Source of the DNA: Cyanobacteria bacterium UBA11368
GTDB lineage: Bacteria > Cyanobacteriota > Cyanobacteriia > Cyanobacteriales > Aerosakkonemataceae
Assembly: GCA_003501785.1 (NCBI GenBank)
Contig: DNOW01000491.1
Coordinates: 3,989-21,229, forward strand
DNA length: 17,241 nt
Reading direction: 5' to 3'
Shown here in pieces: positions 6,073-13,513 of the stretch. The notes beneath the pieces were generated by a model. It was not told the origin of the DNA. It saw nothing but the letters and a program-made list of their open reading frames with translations, and searched no databases. Both the position numbers and the translations under genes were made by a program. Position 1 is the first letter of the stretch. Every line of letters starts with the position of its first letter.

Positions 6073-9000
6073 TCAAACTGTCACGCCTTCTAATTCTTCA
6101 TCTGTCAACTCATACAATTCGCGCAACTTCTGTAACTTCTCCGGATCGGCTTCCCAGAAACCCCGTCCATGCGCTTCTAACATTCTGCCGATAATATTGC
6201 GAAAAGCTTCCGGATTTGCCTCTCGCAATTTCTTCGCCATTTCTGCATCCAAAGCATAAGTATCCGCCGCCTGATCGTAAACCCAATTATCAGTAAAATC
6301 AGCCGTACCGCCCCAACCAATTAATGCCGTCATTCGCTGCGAAATTTCATACGCGCCGCCGCTACCTTGATTTGCCATTGCATCTGCCCATTTAGGATTT
6401 AATAGCTTCGTGCGATATTCCATCCTCAGCAAATCTTCTAAATTGCGCGGCGTTGTATCTTTCGAGAAACTTTCGACAAAACTAGCATTAACTTTCTTAC
6501 CTTGTTGTTTCTCCGCCGCCTTTTTCAAACCACCCGTATTGGCATAATATTCTTGAATATCGGTTAAACCATATTCAACCGAATCAATTTCTTGCACCAC
6601 GCGGCGAGTAGTTTGCAACAGTTGGTTTAAAACTGCCTTGCGAGATTGACCTTTATCATTTCTGCCGTAACTGAAAGCATTGCGACTTGACCAAGTATCC
6701 GCCAACTCTTCTCCAGAGTCCCAATTTCCATCAGTCACTCGCTCATTTACTAGCGAACCAAAATCGCCAGCGGGGTTCGAGAATAGACGCGCAGTGGGAT
6801 TGGGGATATTTTGCTCGCGCATCCCCAAAACATGTTTCCTGATAAAATTCATCTCCTCCGGTTCATCAACATCCGCCGCCCGTTGAAACAAGTCATCTAA
6901 CAACTCAATAATATTGACAAAACTATCGCGAAAAATCCCCGAAAGATTAGCCAATACATCAATCCGAGGATGCCCAACTTCCTCCAAAGATTTCAACTCA
7001 TAACGCACAATCCGCCCCGTACCTTCCTTGACGGGTTCAGCACCCACCAACTCTAACAAAATCCCCAAAGATTCACCCTTAGTTTTAATCGCATCCAACC
7101 CCCACAACATAACAGCAACCGTCTCCGGATATTCCCCATGTTCTTCTAAGTGTTGATCGATAATTTTCCGGGCAATTTCCCTCCCCCGTTCGTAAGCACC
7201 AGCAGAAGGCATCCTATAAGGATCTAAAGCATGAATATTCCGCCCCGTAGGCAAAACACCCGCACCATCTCTTAACAGATCGCCCCCCGGTGCAGGAGGA
7301 ATATACTCCCCATTCAACCCCCGCAACAAATTCCTCAACTCCTCCGTATTCTGCCCCAACAAATCTCCAATCCTTCTCTCCTCTTCTTGGCGTTCTTGGC
7401 GTCTTGGCGGTTCGTTATCTTCCTCTCCAAAATAAGCATCAAAATACGATGCCAACTCCTCATCCGTCGGAGGTTCACCCAGCGTATGCAACCCCGAAGA
7501 AAACAGACGAGTTTCCAACACTTGCAAATACTCGTACAACTTGACTAAATAATCATTAAATGCATGGGCGCTGAACATCCGGACATTCTCCGGCGTAAAA
7601 GAAATCCCCAACTTTTTAGCATCCTCAAACGCACAATCGGCATCCAATCCAGTATCGACAATCTTCTTACAAATCGCCTCCTTAAGCGCATAATTCTTTT
7701 GCGGATCTTCTCGATATTCTGAGATTAAATCTCGCAGCGCCACCAATTCCTTATACAACCCCGCCCTCCCATAAGGCGGCACGTTGTGAGAAATCAGCAC
7801 CCCATAACCGCGACGCTTCGCCAAGATAGATTCAGACGGATTATTTGCCGCATAGATATACAAATTGGGAATATCTCCCAATAAAATATCAGGCCAAGAA
7901 TAACCTGTATTTCCTAACGGAGATCCGGGCAACCATTCAACCGTACCGTGCATTCCAAAGTGGATCGCAGCATCGGCTTGAAACTCATTTTGCAACCATT
8001 TATAAAAAGCAGCATATTGAGGATGAGGCGTCATATCCCGTTCAAACATTAGCCGCATCGGATCGCCTGCAATTCCCAATGGTGGTTGCACGCCGATCCA
8101 AATATTTCCTAACTCAATACCGCCGATATGATATTCATCTCCATAGGTTTTGATGCCGCTGCTGGTGAGAGATTTCCACTGCTTTTCGATGCGGGTTGTT
8201 AGTAGGTATCCCAGCCATTTATCTAGAGTTTTGGCGTTGACGGTGTTGTATTCGTTTCCATCAAGTATCGAGTCAATAACTGGTTCTTCTTGGCTACGAA
8301 TTTGAGGTTCATCTGCTTGTTTAACGCGGCGGATTAATTCTTCTCCATCTTCGGGTAATTCGCCGATTGTGTAACCTTGTTCTTTGAGTGCTTGGAGTAA
8401 TTTAAGCAAACTGCGGGGGACGTTTAATAATGCAGCCGTTCCCGTTGCACCATATCCAGGCGGGAAGCCGTAGAGAAGAATGGCAACTTTGCGTTCAGAG
8501 GCAGGTTTTTGTCTTAATTCAATCCAATTTTTCAATCTGCCAGTTAAACGCTTGACTCGTTCGGGAATCAGATAAATATCTTCTCCTACTAAACCGCCTA
8601 AAGGTATTGTATCAATGGCTCCATCTAATTCTGGCAAGGCATATAATACGACACTTTGCAATCCCCCAATACCTTGGCGCGTCCAAGAATGGATATCTTG
8701 AATTAGCAAGGGTGCGGCAACGATGTAAGGTATATTTTTGGCAGTTAAAATTTTAACAGCTATTTCTGTTTGGCGCCCGGCTTCCATTGAACCAGCAGGG
8801 CCACCTACTAACGGGAAACCAATGGTAGAGACAATTGCATCTACTTCTACGGCTTCTTTGGAGAGGGTAGCAAAAGGGGAGCTAATCCGTTTCGACACCT
8901 CTATTTGGCGACCAGCTTCTTGATCAACGCCTAATGGCATCTGAGGTTTGCTGGTTTCCCCTTTTGCTAATTTAATTATCGCTTGTTCGTGGGAACTTGT

Positions 9001-9951
9001 CATCCAATCTCGTACAGCAACATGAGCTTCAACGCCATTGATAAAGATGGGCAAGGGAATAAGTCCGGCTTGCTCAAAGTAGTTAATTAATTTTGGAATA
9101 TAAGGCTGTTTGGTTACGACGTGTTTGCGATAAAGTAAGATTCCAACTACTGGACTGGTAAGTGGTAATTCTTCTTTTTTGTCCGTTCCTCTGCTATCTT
9201 GGTCGCAAGTCGGGGCGGGTTTATTTAAGTTATCTGTTTGAGTTGTAAGGTTATTGGTGAAACCCGCCCCTACAAATCTGCGCCGATACCATTCTAAATA
9301 TTGGCGCGGCGATTCAAAATAGCCTTGATATTCAGGATGTAACAAACCCATGTTGGGGGTTTCGACTGGGGGCGGGATTTCTCCTACTTTTAATTCCAGA
9401 TATTTTTCTGCTATTGTCCAGAACATGGAGGCGACGTTATCTGTGCCGCCAGCGTTCCAGTAACCGTAAATAATCAGCCAGTTTCGCAAGTCTTGAACTT
9501 TTTGTACTGGGACGTATTTTAATAGTTTTGGCCCTACTTTTAGGAAGCTGATATAACCGGCGAGTTTGTCTTCTTCTTTGCCGTTGCTGAATTTATCTAA
9601 AATGAATTTAACGGGTTTGGGCATTCCTTTTGGTTTATCGCCAATTTTGAAGGCACCAATTTGAGTTAAACTCATCAATTCTAAGGCTGACTCGAAGACG
9701 AGGCGGATGGGGATGTGCTGCACTCTTTCGCGCAACCACATCACTTGGTCGTAGTCAAAGATTAAACTGGCGAAGAAGACATCTGCGCCTTTGAGGGCGT
9801 CGGCGACGACTTGCGGTGAGGTGTTGAGGGCGCGATCGCTAAACACCCGCACATCCAACTCCGGACAGCGGGAATTCGCTAACTGTGCGGCTTTCCGGTA
9901 CAAGTCAGCGTTGAAGGATTCAAACCCAGCGATTAGAACAATGCGTTTCAT
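6073..9951 (-). CDS. CobN/magnesium-chelatase subunit H family protein (ChlH-like paralogue, possibly cobaltochelatase CobN)
   Basis: A 1292-aa ORF. The N-terminal region aligns with the ChlH N-terminus (ASLIF.YD...PKLLKYVPVQKVQDLRNW...YWNAGGTDN versus ChlH ASLIFIEDL...PTVLKYLPVEKAQDARNF...YWLGGSQEN), but at only moderate identity, so it is not the canonical, highly conserved ChlH. The CobN/Mg-chelatase fold-sized body is present throughout. Confidence 0.8.
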   Translation of the reverse strand: MKRIVLIAGFESFNADLYRKAAQLANSRCPELDVRVFSDRALNTSPQVVADALKGADVFFASLIFDYDQVMWLRERVQHIPIRLVFESALELMSLTQIGAFKIGDKPKGMPKPVKFILDKFSNGKEEDKLAGYISFLKVGPKLLKYVPVQKVQDLRNWLIIYGYWNAGGTDNVASMFWTIAEKYLELKVGEIPPPVETPNMGLLHPEYQGYFESPRQYLEWYRRRFVGAGFTNNLTTQTDNLNKPAPTCDQDSRGTDKKEELPLTSPVVGILLYRKHVVTKQPYIPKLINYFEQAGLIPLPIFINGVEAHVAVRDWMTSSHEQAIIKLAKGETSKPQMPLGVDQEAGRQIEVSKRISSPFATLSKEAVEVDAIVSTIGFPLVGGPAGSMEAGRQTEIAVKILTAKNIPYIVAAPLLIQDIHSWTRQGIGGLQSVVLYALPELDGAIDTIPLGGLVGEDIYLIPERVKRLTGRLKNWIELRQKPASERKVAILLYGFPPGYGATGTAALLNVPRSLLKLLQALKEQGYTIGELPEDGEELIRRVKQADEPQIRSQEEPVIDSILDGNEYNTVNAKTLDKWLGYLLTTRIEKQWKSLTSSGIKTYGDEYHIGGIELGNIWIGVQPPLGIAGDPMRLMFERDMTPHPQYAAFYKWLQNEFQADAAIHFGMHGTVEWLPGSPLGNTGYSWPDILLGDIPNLYIYAANNPSESILAKRRGYGVLISHNVPPYGRAGLYKELVALRDLISEYREDPQKNYALKEAICKKIVDTGLDADCAFEDAKKLGISFTPENVRMFSAHAFNDYLVKLYEYLQVLETRLFSSGLHTLGEPPTDEELASYFDAYFGEEDNEPPRRQERQEEERRIGDLLGQNTEELRNLLRGLNGEYIPPAPGGDLLRDGAGVLPTGRNIHALDPYRMPSAGAYERGREIARKIIDQHLEEHGEYPETVAVMLWGLDAIKTKGESLGILLELVGAEPVKEGTGRIVRYELKSLEEVGHPRIDVLANLSGIFRDSFVNIIELLDDLFQRAADVDEPEEMNFIRKHVLGMREQNIPNPTARLFSNPAGDFGSLVNERVTDGNWDSGEELADTWSSRNAFSYGRNDKGQSRKAVLNQLLQTTRRVVQEIDSVEYGLTDIQEYYANTGGLKKAAEKQQGKKVNASFVESFSKDTTPRNLEDLLRMEYRTKLLNPKWADAMANQGSGGAYEISQRMTALIGWGGTADFTDNWVYDQAADTYALDAEMAKKLREANPEAFRNIIGRMLEAHGRGFWEADPEKLQKLRELYELTDEELEGVTV

Positions 9952-10060
9952 ACCCCAAACCCTGAAATATTTCTTTACTTTTATTTTAAGATCGGTTTCA
10001 GGTTATGGGCTGGGACGGGCAAGATGCCCATCCCACAATAAGCCGAACGACTAAAGTCGC

Positions 10061-10092
10061 GGCTACACAAACAAAGCCCGCCTTCGCGGGCT
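10061..10092 (-). terminator. Rho-independent-like terminator for the minus-strand membrane-protein gene, embedded in a dispersed repeat copy
   Basis: On the minus strand the sequence reads agcccgcgaaggcgggct (7-bp GC stem, 4-nt loop) followed by ttgtttgtgtagcc (T-rich). It lies 34 nt downstream of the stop of the 10126..10689 gene. The same sequence block recurs at 13372-13398 and, inverted, at 13445-13470. Confidence 0.5.
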
Positions 10093-10125
10093 ATAAAATA
10101 CCAGATTTGGTATTAGGTAGTTGCC

Positions 10126-10689
10126 TTATGCTTGGGCTTTAGGCGCGACATCCCGCCTACCCCAGGGTTTGATAATAGAAATAGCAATAATCAGAACAAG
10201 GCTTGCTACTACGATCGAACCTCCAATTGTTGCACCTTTGATGTCGAACATGAACAGCGGATTAGTTAATGCTTTGATTCGTTCTGTTTGGGAAATTGAA
10301 GTGGCAGCATCTGCCCAAGGTTTAAGCCATAATGAGCCAAAGATAATCAGCAATAAAGTTGCTACCCATTTGACGATTACCCAATAAAATTTGAAAAATC
10401 CCCAAACGGTTAACCAGCATAGCAGCGTACCTGTTATAACTGATGCGATCGCAGACGGAATCACGACAAAATCATCCAGCAGTTTGACCGCTAAGTTAAA
10501 GGCGTACAGTTCATCGCCATCGGTCATTTTTAAGCTGCTTAATCCAATCAATACCATGCAAAATGCCGTGCCAATCCAAATCGCACCGGATGTCAGATGG
10601 GCAGAAACTAACCAGTGTTTTGGCAGTCCGGTTAGTTTCTTTCCAGGCCGATCCTTTTTATCTTGGATCGTCATAGAGGGATTGGTCAT
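10126..10689 (-). CDS. Hypothetical integral membrane protein, about 4 predicted TM helices
   Basis: A 187-aa ORF with four hydrophobic stretches (AIWIGTAFCMVLIGLSSL; VVIPSAIASVITGTLLCWL; WVATLLLIIFGSLWL; IGGSIVVASLVLIIAISII) and a basic N-terminal tail. I recognised no specific family. Confidence 0.55.
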   Translation of the reverse strand: MTNPSMTIQDKKDRPGKKLTGLPKHWLVSAHLTSGAIWIGTAFCMVLIGLSSLKMTDGDELYAFNLAVKLLDDFVVIPSAIASVITGTLLCWLTVWGFFKFYWVIVKWVATLLLIIFGSLWLKPWADAATSISQTERIKALTNPLFMFDIKGATIGGSIVVASLVLIIAISIIKPWGRRDVAPKAQA

Positions 10690-10772
10690 TGTTTCCTCTC
10701 AGGTTTTTGCAAAAAGACAAATCTTTCCTCAATCCCCAACGCGATCGCACTGGGAACTTAGCAACAACAATT

Positions 10773-10821
10773 AGAGCGCTCTTGTTTAGTTAGGCTACAT
10801 ATAGTATGCCGCCTAACTAAA
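10773..10821. promoter_or_regulatory. Two adjacent palindromes (agagcgctct; tttagttaggc-N15-gcctaactaaa), a candidate MarR operator or terminator
   Basis: A perfect 10-bp palindrome at 10773-10782 and an 11-bp perfect inverted repeat at 10785-10795 / 10811-10821. They lie in the 181-bp region between the marR stop (10871) and the membrane-protein gene start (10689), both on the minus strand. Confidence 0.35.
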
Positions 10822-10839
10822 GTTTAATCAATATCTGAA

Positions 10840-10865
10840 TCAGATTTTTTGGCTCCCCAATCTGA
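10840..10865 (-). terminator. Weak candidate hairpin just downstream of the marR stop
   Basis: tcagatt-N12-aatctga, a 7-bp inverted repeat that starts 6 nt after the marR stop on the minus strand. There is no strong U-tract. Confidence 0.2.
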
Positions 10866-10870
10866 GCGAA

Positions 10871-11473
10871 CTACGTATTACGCAAAGCAGGGGTTCCAGC
10901 TTGTAGCTTTGCCAACAAACCAATCAGGGTTTCCTTTTCAGCGTCCGTCAAATTAGCCATCAAACCTGTAGTACGGCAGAAGTGATCGGGCAACATTTTA
11001 CACAGTAATTCTTGTCCCTTGGGGGTGATGCGAACGTTTAACATCCGCCTGTCTATAGGATGAGGTTGGCGCTTCACCAAGCCATCGCGTTCTAGTCCGT
11101 CTAAAAGTCCTGTAATCGTGCCTCGCGTTACTCCAGCGCGTTCGGCACATTCAGAAGGTGCAAGTCCTTGTTCGCCAGCGTGGAGTAGTTGCATCAGTAT
11201 GGTGAATTTTCCCATCGATAAACCATATCTGGCAAAATGCGTCTCATATGCTTCGTAGACCTCAGCCGTTGCATTCAAGAAAGCCAAACAAGCCTCTACT
11301 GAAGCGAGATCCATTTCGGGATATTGACTTGCAAGGCTGAGCAGTACCTGTTGATTGGGATGCGATCGCGGCGTTAGCATAGGGGATAATTTGGTGACAG
11401 CCTTATTATATTGTGCGTAATCGGTACGTTCAGCGTAAAACGCATTTCTCCTCACCATCCGCACTCGCTCCAT
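10871..11473 (-). CDS. MarR-family transcriptional regulator
   Basis: A winged-HTH region typical of MarR: LSMGKFTILMQLLHAGEQGLAPSECAERAGVTRGTITGLLDGLERDGLVKRQPHPIDRRMLNVRITPKGQELL. The true start may be an internal Met (e.g. MLTPRS..., giving about 169 aa) rather than the 200-aa maximal ORF. Confidence 0.85.
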   Translation of the reverse strand: MERVRMVRRNAFYAERTDYAQYNKAVTKLSPMLTPRSHPNQQVLLSLASQYPEMDLASVEACLAFLNATAEVYEAYETHFARYGLSMGKFTILMQLLHAGEQGLAPSECAERAGVTRGTITGLLDGLERDGLVKRQPHPIDRRMLNVRITPKGQELLCKMLPDHFCRTTGLMANLTDAEKETLIGLLAKLQAGTPALRNT

Positions 11474-11620
11474 GCAGTTTTGAAATGCTTGAGTTTACTT
11501 AATAGTAAGAATCCCAAAGAGAGAGCTATTTTAAGCAGATACTCGCTCAGAGTTTTACTTGGCGCTGGAGCGCGATCGCATTTCTCTTTATTCAAGCACT
11601 TTATCGCCAAATCAGCAATG

Positions 11621-13075
11621 TTAGGTTTCTACTGCAAAGGCTTCGGGGTCAACGTCCCAATTTACCCAGCGAATGGCTTCACGCGCAGAAGTGAGGTTAG
11701 GAGGAACGCGCAAGACGTGAATATGATTCGTGCTAGGGCAAGTCATTTTCAACAGATGAATCGGTTCGTCATCGATATCCGCCTGAATCTTCAACAGCGA
11801 GTATTCACGCCAAGTATCTAGTTCTACGGCTTCAAGCTCTTGCAGGATGCGATCGTACCCAATTCCTTGAATCAAAACGCGCCGAAGTTCTGCGTTTGGT
11901 TCTTTTAGTAGCCATTGCGATCGCCAATTCTTAGACAAAACCGCTCCGTACTTCTGGGGAATCTCGGTTCCATGCCAAAAATAGTAGCACTCCCACTCTG
12001 ACCATTGAACGGCAGGCTGACCGTCTGCGTGAAGCCGATCGTCTTGAATTCGCATTACCGGAAGGGTCAAGGCAACGACTTTTGTTTTTGTCACCCAAAA
12101 ACAAAACAACCCTGCTTCAACCGCATCTACAAATGGCATCCACACAGCACACAATTGCTCGTGCTGAGGCTCGCTAGTCGTGGAATTAACGCAAACAGTA
12201 GCCCACCCAGCAGCCCACAGAGCCTCCATTTCCTTCATATCTATCGGGTCGCCAGCCCACGCTGCGATAAAAGCAGCATCTCTGGCACTACCCTTCGCAT
12301 CAAGCCACGTACCAAAAGACGGAGCATCCCACGCAGCATCCTCCGCATACTTAGACGCGCGATCGCTGGGATAATCATCTTTAGGTTTCCATCTGGCCCT
12401 AAATGAATCAGTAAATGAATCAGCCCATGCAGATCTAGCAGATCGAAATGCAGCACCACTCCCAGGCTTCTTCACATCATCCCACACAGCATTCTTCGCA
12501 TTAGACCAAGCCAAAGAAAACGCTATACCAAATACCGTATTAAACGCCTCATTCCACAAAGGATTACTGGCAGGTTTCCTGACAACTCTAAGTGCTGCAT
12601 TAAATGCCGCATCAGATGCGGTTTTATACGCTGCATCAAATGCCGACTTAAACGCGCCAGCGTGTGGGGCATCACTTACCGCCGCCAACACTACCTCTAA
12701 AGCAGCCTCCAAGACAGCCTCTAATACCGCATCACTTGCAACCTCACTCACAGCATCATCGGCAGCTTTCCTCGCCGCTTTGTGAGCCGTATCCAAAACA
12801 GCTTTCCTCGATGCCTCAAACGCCTTTTCCCACTGGAAATCATACTTACCACTCTCCCACGCCGCATCAAATGCCGCATAAAACGATTGATAAATCTCAA
12901 CAAAGCGATCGCGCTGATTCAGTGCTATTAAATGTTGGGAAAACGCATCTCGAATTCGCTGTTCGCAAATCTTCGGGTTTTCGTAGTCGATCGCAGCGAG
13001 TCGAGCGATTATCTGTTGAGCCTTGGGCAATAGATCGGTCGGCAACATAGCGCTATCGGTGCGGTTAATATTCAT
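11621..13075 (-). CDS. Hypothetical protein with N-terminal Ala/Trp-rich degenerate repeats and a DUF6745-like C-terminal domain
   Basis: The N-terminal roughly 300 aa are full of xAxDAAW/AAF motifs (AAFDAAWESG, SAFDAAYKTASDAAFNAAL, AAFRSARSAWADSF, AEDAAWDAPSFGTW, ARDAAFIAAWAGD). The C-terminus (YYFWHGTEIP...NAELRRVLIQGIGYDRILQ...HVLRVPPNLTSAREAIRWVNW) matches my recollection of the conserved core of actinobacterial/cyanobacterial DUF6745 proteins (...NAEVRRVMIERYG...LRVPP...TAREAVAWTF). I ran no search. Confidence 0.65.
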   Translation of the reverse strand: MNINRTDSAMLPTDLLPKAQQIIARLAAIDYENPKICEQRIRDAFSQHLIALNQRDRFVEIYQSFYAAFDAAWESGKYDFQWEKAFEASRKAVLDTAHKAARKAADDAVSEVASDAVLEAVLEAALEVVLAAVSDAPHAGAFKSAFDAAYKTASDAAFNAALRVVRKPASNPLWNEAFNTVFGIAFSLAWSNAKNAVWDDVKKPGSGAAFRSARSAWADSFTDSFRARWKPKDDYPSDRASKYAEDAAWDAPSFGTWLDAKGSARDAAFIAAWAGDPIDMKEMEALWAAGWATVCVNSTTSEPQHEQLCAVWMPFVDAVEAGLFCFWVTKTKVVALTLPVMRIQDDRLHADGQPAVQWSEWECYYFWHGTEIPQKYGAVLSKNWRSQWLLKEPNAELRRVLIQGIGYDRILQELEAVELDTWREYSLLKIQADIDDEPIHLLKMTCPSTNHIHVLRVPPNLTSAREAIRWVNWDVDPEAFAVET

Positions 13076-13278
13076 CGCTTTTTCTTACTTAATACCCAGC
13101 TTTTAATGCTGAAGGCAGTCGCTGCGATCGCTCTGCCGAAACTAGCACGATCGGTAATCAAGTTGGTCAGTCATTGCAGTAGCCCTACTTTTCTCCAGGA
13201 TGCAAATATAACCAATAACTACAGTCAGTCAGTTTGAATTCCGCAACTCGGCAATCAAATCGAAACATTTCTTCATCT

Positions 13279-13296
13279 TTCTCTTAATTAAGAGAA
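13279..13296. promoter_or_regulatory. 18-bp perfect palindrome ttctcttaattaagagaa in the divergent promoter region
   Basis: Read directly; it is its own reverse complement. It lies about 200 bp upstream of the minus-strand 484-aa gene start (13075) and about 220 bp upstream of the MVP start (13514). This fits a dimeric transcription-factor site shared by divergent promoters. Confidence 0.4.
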
Positions 13297-13360
13297 TCGT
13301 CGGCTAAAACAGAGAAGGAGAGGGAGCATGTCAGCAATGCAAATCTACACCAACACCCTG

Positions 13361-13480
13361 AAGGGTGCGGCTATACAAACGAGAGCCATCCTTCGCGGGC
13401 TAAAACTTTTAAAGCCTGCGTTCGCGAAGCGTTCCCGAAGGGTAGGCAGGCTTTGTTTGTGTAGCGACACCCTTTAGGGT
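13361..13480. repeat. MITE-like palindromic repeat element, about 120 bp, imperfect inverted arms with terminal hairpins
   Basis: The left arm (caccctgaagggtgcggctatacaaacgagagcc...cttcgcgggcta) and right arm (ggcaggctttgtttgtgtagcgacaccctttagggtgtc) are imperfect reverse complements. Terminal mini-hairpins are caccct-gaa-gggtg and gacaccct-tta-gggtgtc. The arm sequence gcggcta(c/t)acaaac...agcc...cttcgcgggcta also occurs at 10056-10093, and the central core gcgttcgcgaagcg recurs in reverse complement at 956-969. Confidence 0.6.
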
Positions 13481-13513
13481 GTCGGCTACTCTTTTATCAC
13501 CTTCTTTGAGTGT

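Follow-up and report, generated by a model that had tools for sequence, protein, structure and literature searches.

Does the gene that stands head to head with a major vault protein (MVP) gene in a filamentous cyanobacterium belong to it functionally, or did the two come to lie side by side by rearrangement? The question is raised by a 17,241-nt stretch of Cyanobacteria bacterium UBA11368 (contig DNOW01000491.1; the window, meaning this whole stretch), in which a DUF6745-family gene and an MVP homologue diverge from a 438-bp spacer (13076-13513). Microseira species were the closest named relatives of the window species in the survey of MVP loci described below. To our knowledge, neither a function nor any partner is known for bacterial MVP homologues, and an original prediction made from the sequence of the window had read the layout as that of a co-regulated, functionally linked pair. 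Bacterial MVP homologues as such have been described before (PMC3762200; bioRxiv 10.1101/872010), and the latter report contains nothing on their gene neighbourhood. Our analysis points to another answer. The DUF6745 gene is probably a relocated, solitary copy from a gene array that brought its own upstream sequence along, and its juxtaposition with MVP would therefore be historical and not functional.

Two intact genes diverge from the spacer

11621..13075, minus strand: DUF6745-family gene, solitary copy, 484 aa, ATG start (open reading frame and Pfam PF20530)
13514..16138, plus strand: MVP homologue, 874 aa (Pfam Vault, Vault_2/3/4 and MVP_shoulder)

The predicted identity of the divergent neighbour as MVP was confirmed by its Pfam vault domains, and its coordinates and the length of the spacer agreed. 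The Vault domain scored 224 bits and MVP_shoulder 184.8 bits, and Vault_2, Vault_3 and Vault_4 were also matched. Inspected by eye in the translation, the C-terminal part of the protein (~aa 690-800) is rich in Ala, Glu, Arg and Gln and helix-like.

The 484-aa open reading frame (ORF) on the minus strand with its Ala/aromatic repeat middle was likewise present. The protein is identical in independent gene calls on four further contigs of the same species (L001-L004), which are themselves identical to the window and stem from the metagenome-assembled genomes GCA_031969635.1 and GCA_036726825.1 and two other datasets. Its C terminus, described beforehand as DUF6745-like, matched PF20530 at aa 327-481 with 52.9 bits (gathering cut-off 27; E 3.8e-14; profile positions 43-201 of 206). 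Neither this protein nor MVP was matched by any NCBIfam model or any PADLOC defence-system model, and the only match in a PHROGs search was the unannotated family phrog_31813. Inspection by eye of the N-terminus of the 484-aa protein gave no sign of a signal peptide.

Relatives of the DUF6745 protein were compared in alignments A2, A3 (70 rows) and A5 (105 representative sequences). Full-length relatives numbered ~35 among the matches listed, and hundreds more share the C domain only. A three-region layout emerged from 32 full-length relatives, in which the N-terminal module is conserved, the middle hypervariable and the C-terminal part of ~180 aa strongly conserved:

12884..13048, minus strand: conserved N-terminal module, aa 10-64 (75-96% identity over 32 full-length homologues)
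12176..12883, minus strand: hypervariable Ala/aromatic period-4 helical region, aa 65-300 (composition, periodicity, recombination mosaic)
11624..12175, minus strand: conserved C-terminal region with the DUF6745 domain, aa 301-484 (alignments, Pfam, AlphaFold)

A hidden Markov model (HMM) of the N-terminal module matched DUF6745 loci only. In the middle region Ala makes up 25% of the residues and an aromatic residue recurs at every fourth position (autocorrelation 0.39 at lag 4 and 0.29 at lag 8). Because the periodicity of the underlying DNA is limited to short 12/24-nt stretches, the region is degenerate in its periodicity and does not qualify as a clean tandem repeat. AlphaFold predicted consecutive helices of 19-33 residues for aa 80-320, at moderate confidence (pLDDT 70-89 at aa 100-240). 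A HEAT/ARM-like solenoid had been named as a fold to look for; the repeats are predicted to be all-helical, but the Pfam scan of the protein gave no HEAT/ARM family. In a sequence-profile search of the PDB, the only matches were to designed helical repeat proteins, and these were weak and due to composition (E 0.01-0.5).

The full-length model, built with 32 close homologues, was poor overall (pLDDT 53, pTM 0.39), and the C domain was therefore re-predicted with a more diverse alignment. This gave a confident prediction of a beta-hairpin and helix fold (pLDDT 83, pTM 0.70) that had no significant similarity to PDB structures. The conserved motifs LHA[DE]G.PA, Y..HG..[IL]P.KYG, E.NAELRR.LIQGIGY, LLKMTCPST, LRVPP and W.NW are kept, and so are the family-invariant residues H349, E392, N394, E396, D435, K443, C446-P-S-T449, R456, W470 and N472-W473. 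Polar positions that are invariant or nearly so in A3 and A5 are H349, E392, N394, E396, D435, K443, C446-P-S-T449, H453 and R456. From these, a candidate catalytic or metal-binding centre could be drawn, made up of H349, C446, H453 and the acidic residues.

DUF6745 genes do not generally accompany MVP in other genomes

One genome per GTDB species was scanned by peptide patterns, which yielded 62 MVP loci with flanks of up to 10 kb, mostly from cyanobacteria, with a few from Chloroflexota and Thiomargarita. The start of MVP and at least 2 kb of upstream sequence were kept in 48 of them, and this set was used for the neighbour test. The loci were searched by tblastn with the whole DUF6745 protein and with each of its parts, and HMMs of the N- and C-terminal modules were run against every ORF of every MVP locus. 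A DUF6745 gene was found beside MVP in none of the 48 loci from other species, among them the equally close L007-L009; the sole trace in the survey was an 84-aa decayed fragment in L066. The layout is therefore not that of a conserved divergent pair. The original prediction had itself named missing synteny as what would make the pairing coincidental, and this is essentially what was found: the pair is limited to the window species and the contigs L077-79, with the decayed remnant in L066.

Relatedness does not account for this distribution. MVP DNA is 94.4% identical to the window in L007, 93.1% in L008 (Microseira wollei NIES-4236) and 93.3% in L009. What these three loci encode upstream of MVP is either a NACHT/HEAT-like protein of 965 aa or a repeat protein of the PEP-CTERM kind. 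L077, which has the pair, is no closer (93.9%). The presence of the pair in the window and L077-79 and its absence from equally related loci indicate a presence/absence polymorphism that arose once in a narrow clade.

In L066 the MarR, 187-aa membrane-protein and ChlH/CobN genes of the window are kept, and at 9797-10853 an 84-aa stump of the DUF6745 repeat region is fused to MVP residues 594-874, the last third of the protein. A single deletion evidently took the 5' parts of both genes, which implies that this lineage can do without MVP. L066 also encodes a 519-aa multi-span membrane protein, located between the stump and MarR.

Clustering of the neighbours of all 62 MVP loci revealed no gene family conserved next to cyanobacterial MVP. 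The largest cluster, of the sensor-kinase type, was represented at 15 loci. Had a neighbour been conserved, it would have given a valuable clue to the role of MVP; with these loci examined, that lead is now removed.

In the Microseira loci L008 (9440-9670) and L009 (7350-7562), the upstream flank of MVP contains a fragment from the N-terminal end of an FAD-dependent oxidoreductase (MNLDVIVIGSGIGG...), whereas an intact gene of this kind lies downstream of MVP in the window species (L001 and L047 compared); this is further evidence of rearrangement around MVP.

The spacer is of composite origin

13076..13244, minus strand: DUF6745-side part of the spacer, ~170 bp (near-identical in L077/L078, where the pair is present; absent from L007-L009)
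13142..13196, minus strand: stump of the ~46-aa small ORF of the arrays, leader plus MTDQLDYRSC and a stop (first ten codons; 34-nt match)
13205..13232, minus strand: weak sigma-70-like promoter match facing the DUF6745 gene (9/12 matches)
13259..13321, plus strand: 62-bp block upstream of MVP (nearly invariant in six lineages; A1, A4, BLAST)
13279..13296, no strand: perfect 18-bp palindrome TTCTCTTAATTAAGAGAA, the only one in the window
13322..13490, no strand: lineage-specific doublet of repetitive extragenic palindromic (REP) units, REPIN-like (REPIN, REP doublet forming a hairpin), 169 bp; replaces the ~100-bp leader of relatives
13491..13513, plus strand: conserved proximal MVP leader and ribosome-binding region (kept in L007, L009 and L077)

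The spacer, described beforehand as structured, is not one regulatory unit. Compared between relatives in alignments A1 and A4, it falls into three parts with different distributions. The part next to the DUF6745 gene occurs, besides the window, only in L077/L078, and it contains the stump of an array gene, 34 nt of which match the beginning of the small ORF of L069, L071, L072 and L074. Both observations indicate that this part arrived together with the DUF6745 gene. The 62-bp block, on the other hand, is present also in the three lineages without a DUF6745 gene (L007-L009); it is kept regardless of that gene and therefore belongs to MVP.

The 18-bp palindrome within the block was found at the predicted position. 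Among shuffled sequences, a perfect palindrome of this length turned up in 4 of 200 for the 17 kb and in 4 of 5000 for the 438-bp spacer. Four lineages (window, L007, L077 and L078) have the palindrome in perfect form; L008 shows one mismatch and L009 three, none of the latter compensated. A search ahead of 50 more distant MVP genes gave nothing better than 5-8 mismatches, which equals background, so the palindrome is not a general MVP operator. The block with its palindrome is a candidate part of the MVP promoter or operator, the symmetry of which is not strictly maintained. In the Microseira-like clade it points to where MVP is probably controlled, and it offers a handle for finding the regulator.

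A scan of the region for promoters and terminators gave no more sites than shuffled sequences. The Rfam gathering scan of the whole window matched no family, and hence no riboswitch, known small RNA or vault-RNA-like element in the spacer. The MarR protein encoded nearby (10871-11473) was considered as binder of the palindrome and rejected: L007-L009 keep the palindrome block, yet tblastn found no MarR copy within their flanks of up to 10 kb, and MarR is mostly deleted in L077.

A REP-like doublet replaces the MVP leader in the window lineage

13350..13380, no strand: left arm of the inverted repeat, degenerate tag ATAG beside a stem-loop (sequence read)
13455..13485, no strand: right arm, GTAG, 8-bp GC-rich stem-loop and T-run; terminator-like, 30 bp before the MVP start
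10040..10096, no strand: single unit of the dispersed repeat (GGCTACACAAAC plus inner hairpin), between the ChlH/CobN and 187-aa membrane-protein genes

The third part of the spacer, 13322-13490, is unique to the window lineage. An ancestral leader of ~100 bp is present at this place in all five relatives (102 bp in L077). A 120-bp palindromic element had been reported here; an inverted repeat with a hairpin indeed exists, but it spans 136 bp, and its 31-nt arms are 84% complementary. Folded as DNA it reached -37.8 kcal/mol (z = -6.1), and none of 200 shuffles was as stable. Each half is built of three elements, namely a GC-rich stem-loop at the end, a GTTTGTGTAGC core and a hairpin further in; the tag and stem-loop of the right arm are read from GTAGCGACACCCTTTAGGGTGTCG at 13472-13484 and its flank. 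Units or fragments of the repeat were also found in L007, L008, L009, L014, L066 and L067, and the core motif has five copies in 1.16 Mb of loci, where ~1.1 are expected (a count that refers to the loci only).

A transcript of the doublet, if there is one, would carry a strong hairpin and a terminator-like stem with a T-run 30 bp ahead of the start of MVP. The right arm with its T-run might thereby dampen MVP expression in the window lineage. In any case, the exchange provides a natural variant in which the MVP leader is replaced by a REP doublet.

The doublet also creates an upstream ORF of 49 codons (13328-13477) behind a conserved AGGAGA (13314-13319). This ORF is absent from the relatives and is probably meaningless.

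Related DUF6745 genes lie in arrays and exchange their middle region

The six closest relatives of the DUF6745 gene with readable genomic context all lie in arrays, and the window copy is solitary. Four of the array homologues (P0002, P0007, P0008 and P0010) are 81-88% identical to the window protein, and two from Microcoleus genomes (P0016 and P0018; 61-67% identical) follow the same pattern; none of these arrays contains MVP. The array genes share one strand, and a typical array comprises one or two Ala/Trp-repeat-DUF6745 genes, one to three genes for leucine-rich repeat (LRR)-DUF6745 proteins, a gene for an LRR protein of ~300 aa and an ORF of ~46 aa. The LRR-DUF6745 proteins end with the last ~115 residues of DUF6745. 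The sole exception to the arrays is P0012, the positional orthologue of the window protein, which forms the divergent pair with MVP on contigs L077-79.

In array loci L069, L071-L074, L076, L005 and L006 the conserved ~46-aa ORF reads MTDQPDPLTFTRFIDWCR.... The first genes of the arrays have an upstream sequence in common that the window copy lacks. One array (L071) is flanked by an IS630-type transposase gene.

Comparison with P0012 and with the array copy P0002 revealed a recombination mosaic. The window protein and P0012 are 96% identical in the N-terminal, 49% in the middle and 88% in the C-terminal region, and the corresponding values for P0002 are 93%, 89% and 87%. At the DNA level, a sliding window against the L077 orthologue (3072-4493) gave 98-100% identity for nt 1-180 of the gene, 54-72% for nt 181-800 and ~90% for the remainder. 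The same nt 181-800 are 92-97% identical to array copies of unrelated metagenomes (L069 202-1641 and L071 3074-4507). The middle is thus array-like and not orthologue-like, and we conclude that it is a variable cassette exchanged between paralogues.

The protein may be pictured in two parts: a constant C-terminal DUF6745 module that would serve a common task, and a variable surface of helical repeats for recognition, which would be swapped between paralogues. As a working model suggested by this architecture and evolutionary behaviour, we regard the 484-aa protein as a cytoplasmic modular binder or adaptor.

The family as a whole is very large. At E ≤1e-3 the C domain is found in 4491 representative clusters (50% identity). 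It forms the extreme C-terminus in essentially all of the best matches and comprises the last residues in the best 150 representatives. Its N-terminal partners are LRR, pentapeptide, WD40, HEAT, GGDEF, REC (receiver), lectin-like and unannotated parts. Homologues are also carried by Microcystis phage Ma-LMM01 and by seven IMG/VR contigs, in two of which (L082 5707-6564 and L084 5086-6411) DUF6745 lies among early/DNA-metabolism genes. The phage neighbours encode a Sak4-like annealing protein, SSB, a Holliday-junction resolvase and an exonuclease. This carriage hints at a role of phage-borne DUF6745 in phage-host interplay. A literature search retrieved no paper mentioning DUF6745, and we know of no member of the family with a known function. 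A constant module, exchanged variable repeats and phage carriage form a pattern typical of recognition or conflict genes. With its constant C-terminal module, LRR arrays, repeat exchange and presence in cyanophages, the family merits study apart from MVP.

A probable relocation of an array copy, and its alternatives

From these observations we infer the following course of events. A piece of a DUF6745 array would have landed between the ChlH/CobN gene and MVP, in a rearrangement-prone stretch, in an ancestor of the narrow Microseira-like clade. With it would have come ~170 bp from its own upstream side, the small-ORF stump among them, and the conserved block of MVP with the 18-bp palindrome would be the second source of the spacer. 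In the window lineage only, the head-to-head REP doublet would then have replaced the ancestral leader of MVP.

Several points weigh against a purely historical juxtaposition. The pair is intact in two lineages that are ~6% apart in DNA (window and L077-79), and in both the palindrome lies within ~250 bp of either start codon, so some shared regulation is possible. Since DUF6745 has no known function, a link to MVP is mechanistically conceivable. The joint loss in L066 is neutral in this respect, yet it is compatible with joint dispensability. Furthermore, the peptide-pattern survey reached MVPs of at least ~67% identity and flanks of up to 10 kb only, and genomic context was read for 11 DUF6745 proteins including that of the window, that is, for 10 relatives.

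These points would suit a functional pair restricted to the clade, in which the DUF6745 protein was co-opted after insertion and both genes are co-regulated from a bidirectional region centred on the palindrome. Both genes are indeed intact and divergent in the window species, on four independent contigs, and in L077-79, and the palindrome is perfect in both paired lineages and statistically unusual. We nevertheless consider such a pair unlikely. The palindrome block is equally conserved in L007-L009, where no DUF6745 gene exists, and the 169-bp repeat element is tolerated between block and MVP in the window lineage. With a middle region only 49% identical between the orthologues, no constant partner surface has been maintained, and in L066 both genes are destroyed. 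Slightly lower still we would rate the chance that the solitary copy is a functionless passenger heading for decay. It lacks the conserved upstream sequence of first array genes, has gene remains on either side (the stump of the small ORF and the remnant of a tacA-like gene), and its equivalent in L066 has decayed. Its ORF, however, is full-length and free of frameshifts in two lineages, between which the N- and C-terminal modules are 88-96% identical, and the family-invariant residues are all kept.

A scaffold or cargo-like role of the repeat region had been put forward as well, and nothing was found in its support. In its most explicit form, DUF6745 would dock, from its C-terminal position, variable repeat proteins to the shell of a bacterial vault, either inside or outside, with the neighbour as cargo or scaffold of MVP. 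Its constant C-terminal position and its fusion to LRR, pentapeptide, WD40, HEAT and GGDEF parts are the architecture expected of a targeting domain, and one copy adjoins MVP in the window. No similarity of the C domain to known shell-targeting domains was met in fold or sequence, and we give this proposal, drawn by analogy with the vault-interaction domain of eukaryotic VPARP, very little credence. Equally far-fetched appears the broader version, in which DUF6745 would be a universal docking domain that delivers interchangeable repeat proteins, from LRR to Ala/Trp helices and also a GGDEF enzyme, to one shared structure, this being the vault in cyanobacteria that have MVP. If it were true, the neighbour of MVP would be the first cargo or adaptor of a prokaryotic vault to be recognised. 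A relocated array copy without a functional tie to MVP remains the reading that we favour.

Other parts of the window

11474..11620, minus strand: 147-bp spacer separating the stop of DUF6745 from the start of MarR, with a remnant of a TacA/DUF1778-like antitoxin gene (DNA match to L007)

On its downstream side the DUF6745 gene borders on this antitoxin remnant, which reads ...SKTLSEYLLKIALSLG... in the minus frame. The DNA of the spacer is 98-100% identical to L007 709-760, inside an antitoxin-like ORF (561-959, minus strand), and a second match of 98-100% is found at L007 1-65, at the contig edge just beyond ORF 51-557 (minus strand). The remnant is one more sign of repeated rearrangement. 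By sequence inspection, the TacA-like ORF of L007 adjoins a 168-aa GNAT-like ORF.

The ChlH/CobN-type chelatase subunit (6073-9951, minus strand) has 1292 aa in the window, compared with 1252 aa in L008 (2689-6447) and 1235 aa in L009 (1404-5111). It contains variable inserts near aa 225-265 and 330-350, which may be intragenic repeat insertions, and it was called in two pieces in L002. The left part of the window (75-1013, 1252-1899 and 2136-6023) encodes a putative toxin-antitoxin pair (by sequence inspection, a 168-aa protein and a PIN-like one of 142 aa) and a Cas4-like PD-(D/E)XK nuclease. It further encodes a TPR-CHAT protein of 960 aa, which is preceded by a 308-aa protein of no assigned kind. 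Genes of these kinds are typical of conflict systems in multicellular cyanobacteria.

Comparison with known systems

REP units tagged with GTAG have been reported in filamentous cyanobacteria, where they often occur as inverted dimers (PMC3733652). The doublet in the MVP leader resembles them in its right arm, which combines GTAG with a short GC-rich stem-loop. It resembles REPINs in that two units stand head to head and form one long hairpin, and in that related units or fragments recur in intergenic DNA of the window and of related loci. Unlike in GTAG-tagged REPs, the left tag is degenerate (ATAG), and each unit has an inner hairpin and a GTTTGTGTAGC core. The cognate enzyme of REP and REPIN elements is the REP-associated tyrosine transposase (RAYT), of the IS200/IS605 type; Pfam scans covering the eight largest ORFs of the window gave no transposase family.

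In eukaryotic vaults, known cargo comprises VPARP/PARP4, bound via a C-terminal vault-interaction domain, TEP1 and vault RNA. The MVP homologue of the window has the same layout of repeats and shoulder and, by inspection, a putative cap helix, and its neighbour has a constant C-terminal domain, as would be expected of a targeting domain. On the other side, no conserved partner gene lies beside cyanobacterial MVP, no vault-RNA-like Rfam family occurs in the window, and the DUF6745 fold has no significant similarity to solved structures.

Within its own family the window protein is typical in one half and unusual in the other. As in other PF20530 proteins of filamentous cyanobacteria, the domain occupies the C-terminal ~155-180 residues at the extreme end and keeps the invariant residues. 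Most PF20530 members have LRR or other parts in front of it; here the N-terminal partner is Ala/aromatic and helical, as in ~35 proteins among the matches listed. The closest parallel in design may be F-box proteins with LRR or WD40 domains, adaptors in which a constant module is combined with interchangeable repeats. DUF6745 proteins differ from them in that the module is C-terminal, bears no sequence or fold relation to the F-box and has no known partner machine. The likeness is architectural only: a DUF6745 module joined to LRR, WD40, pentapeptide, HEAT or helical repeats, many paralogues per genome and a fast-evolving repeat part.

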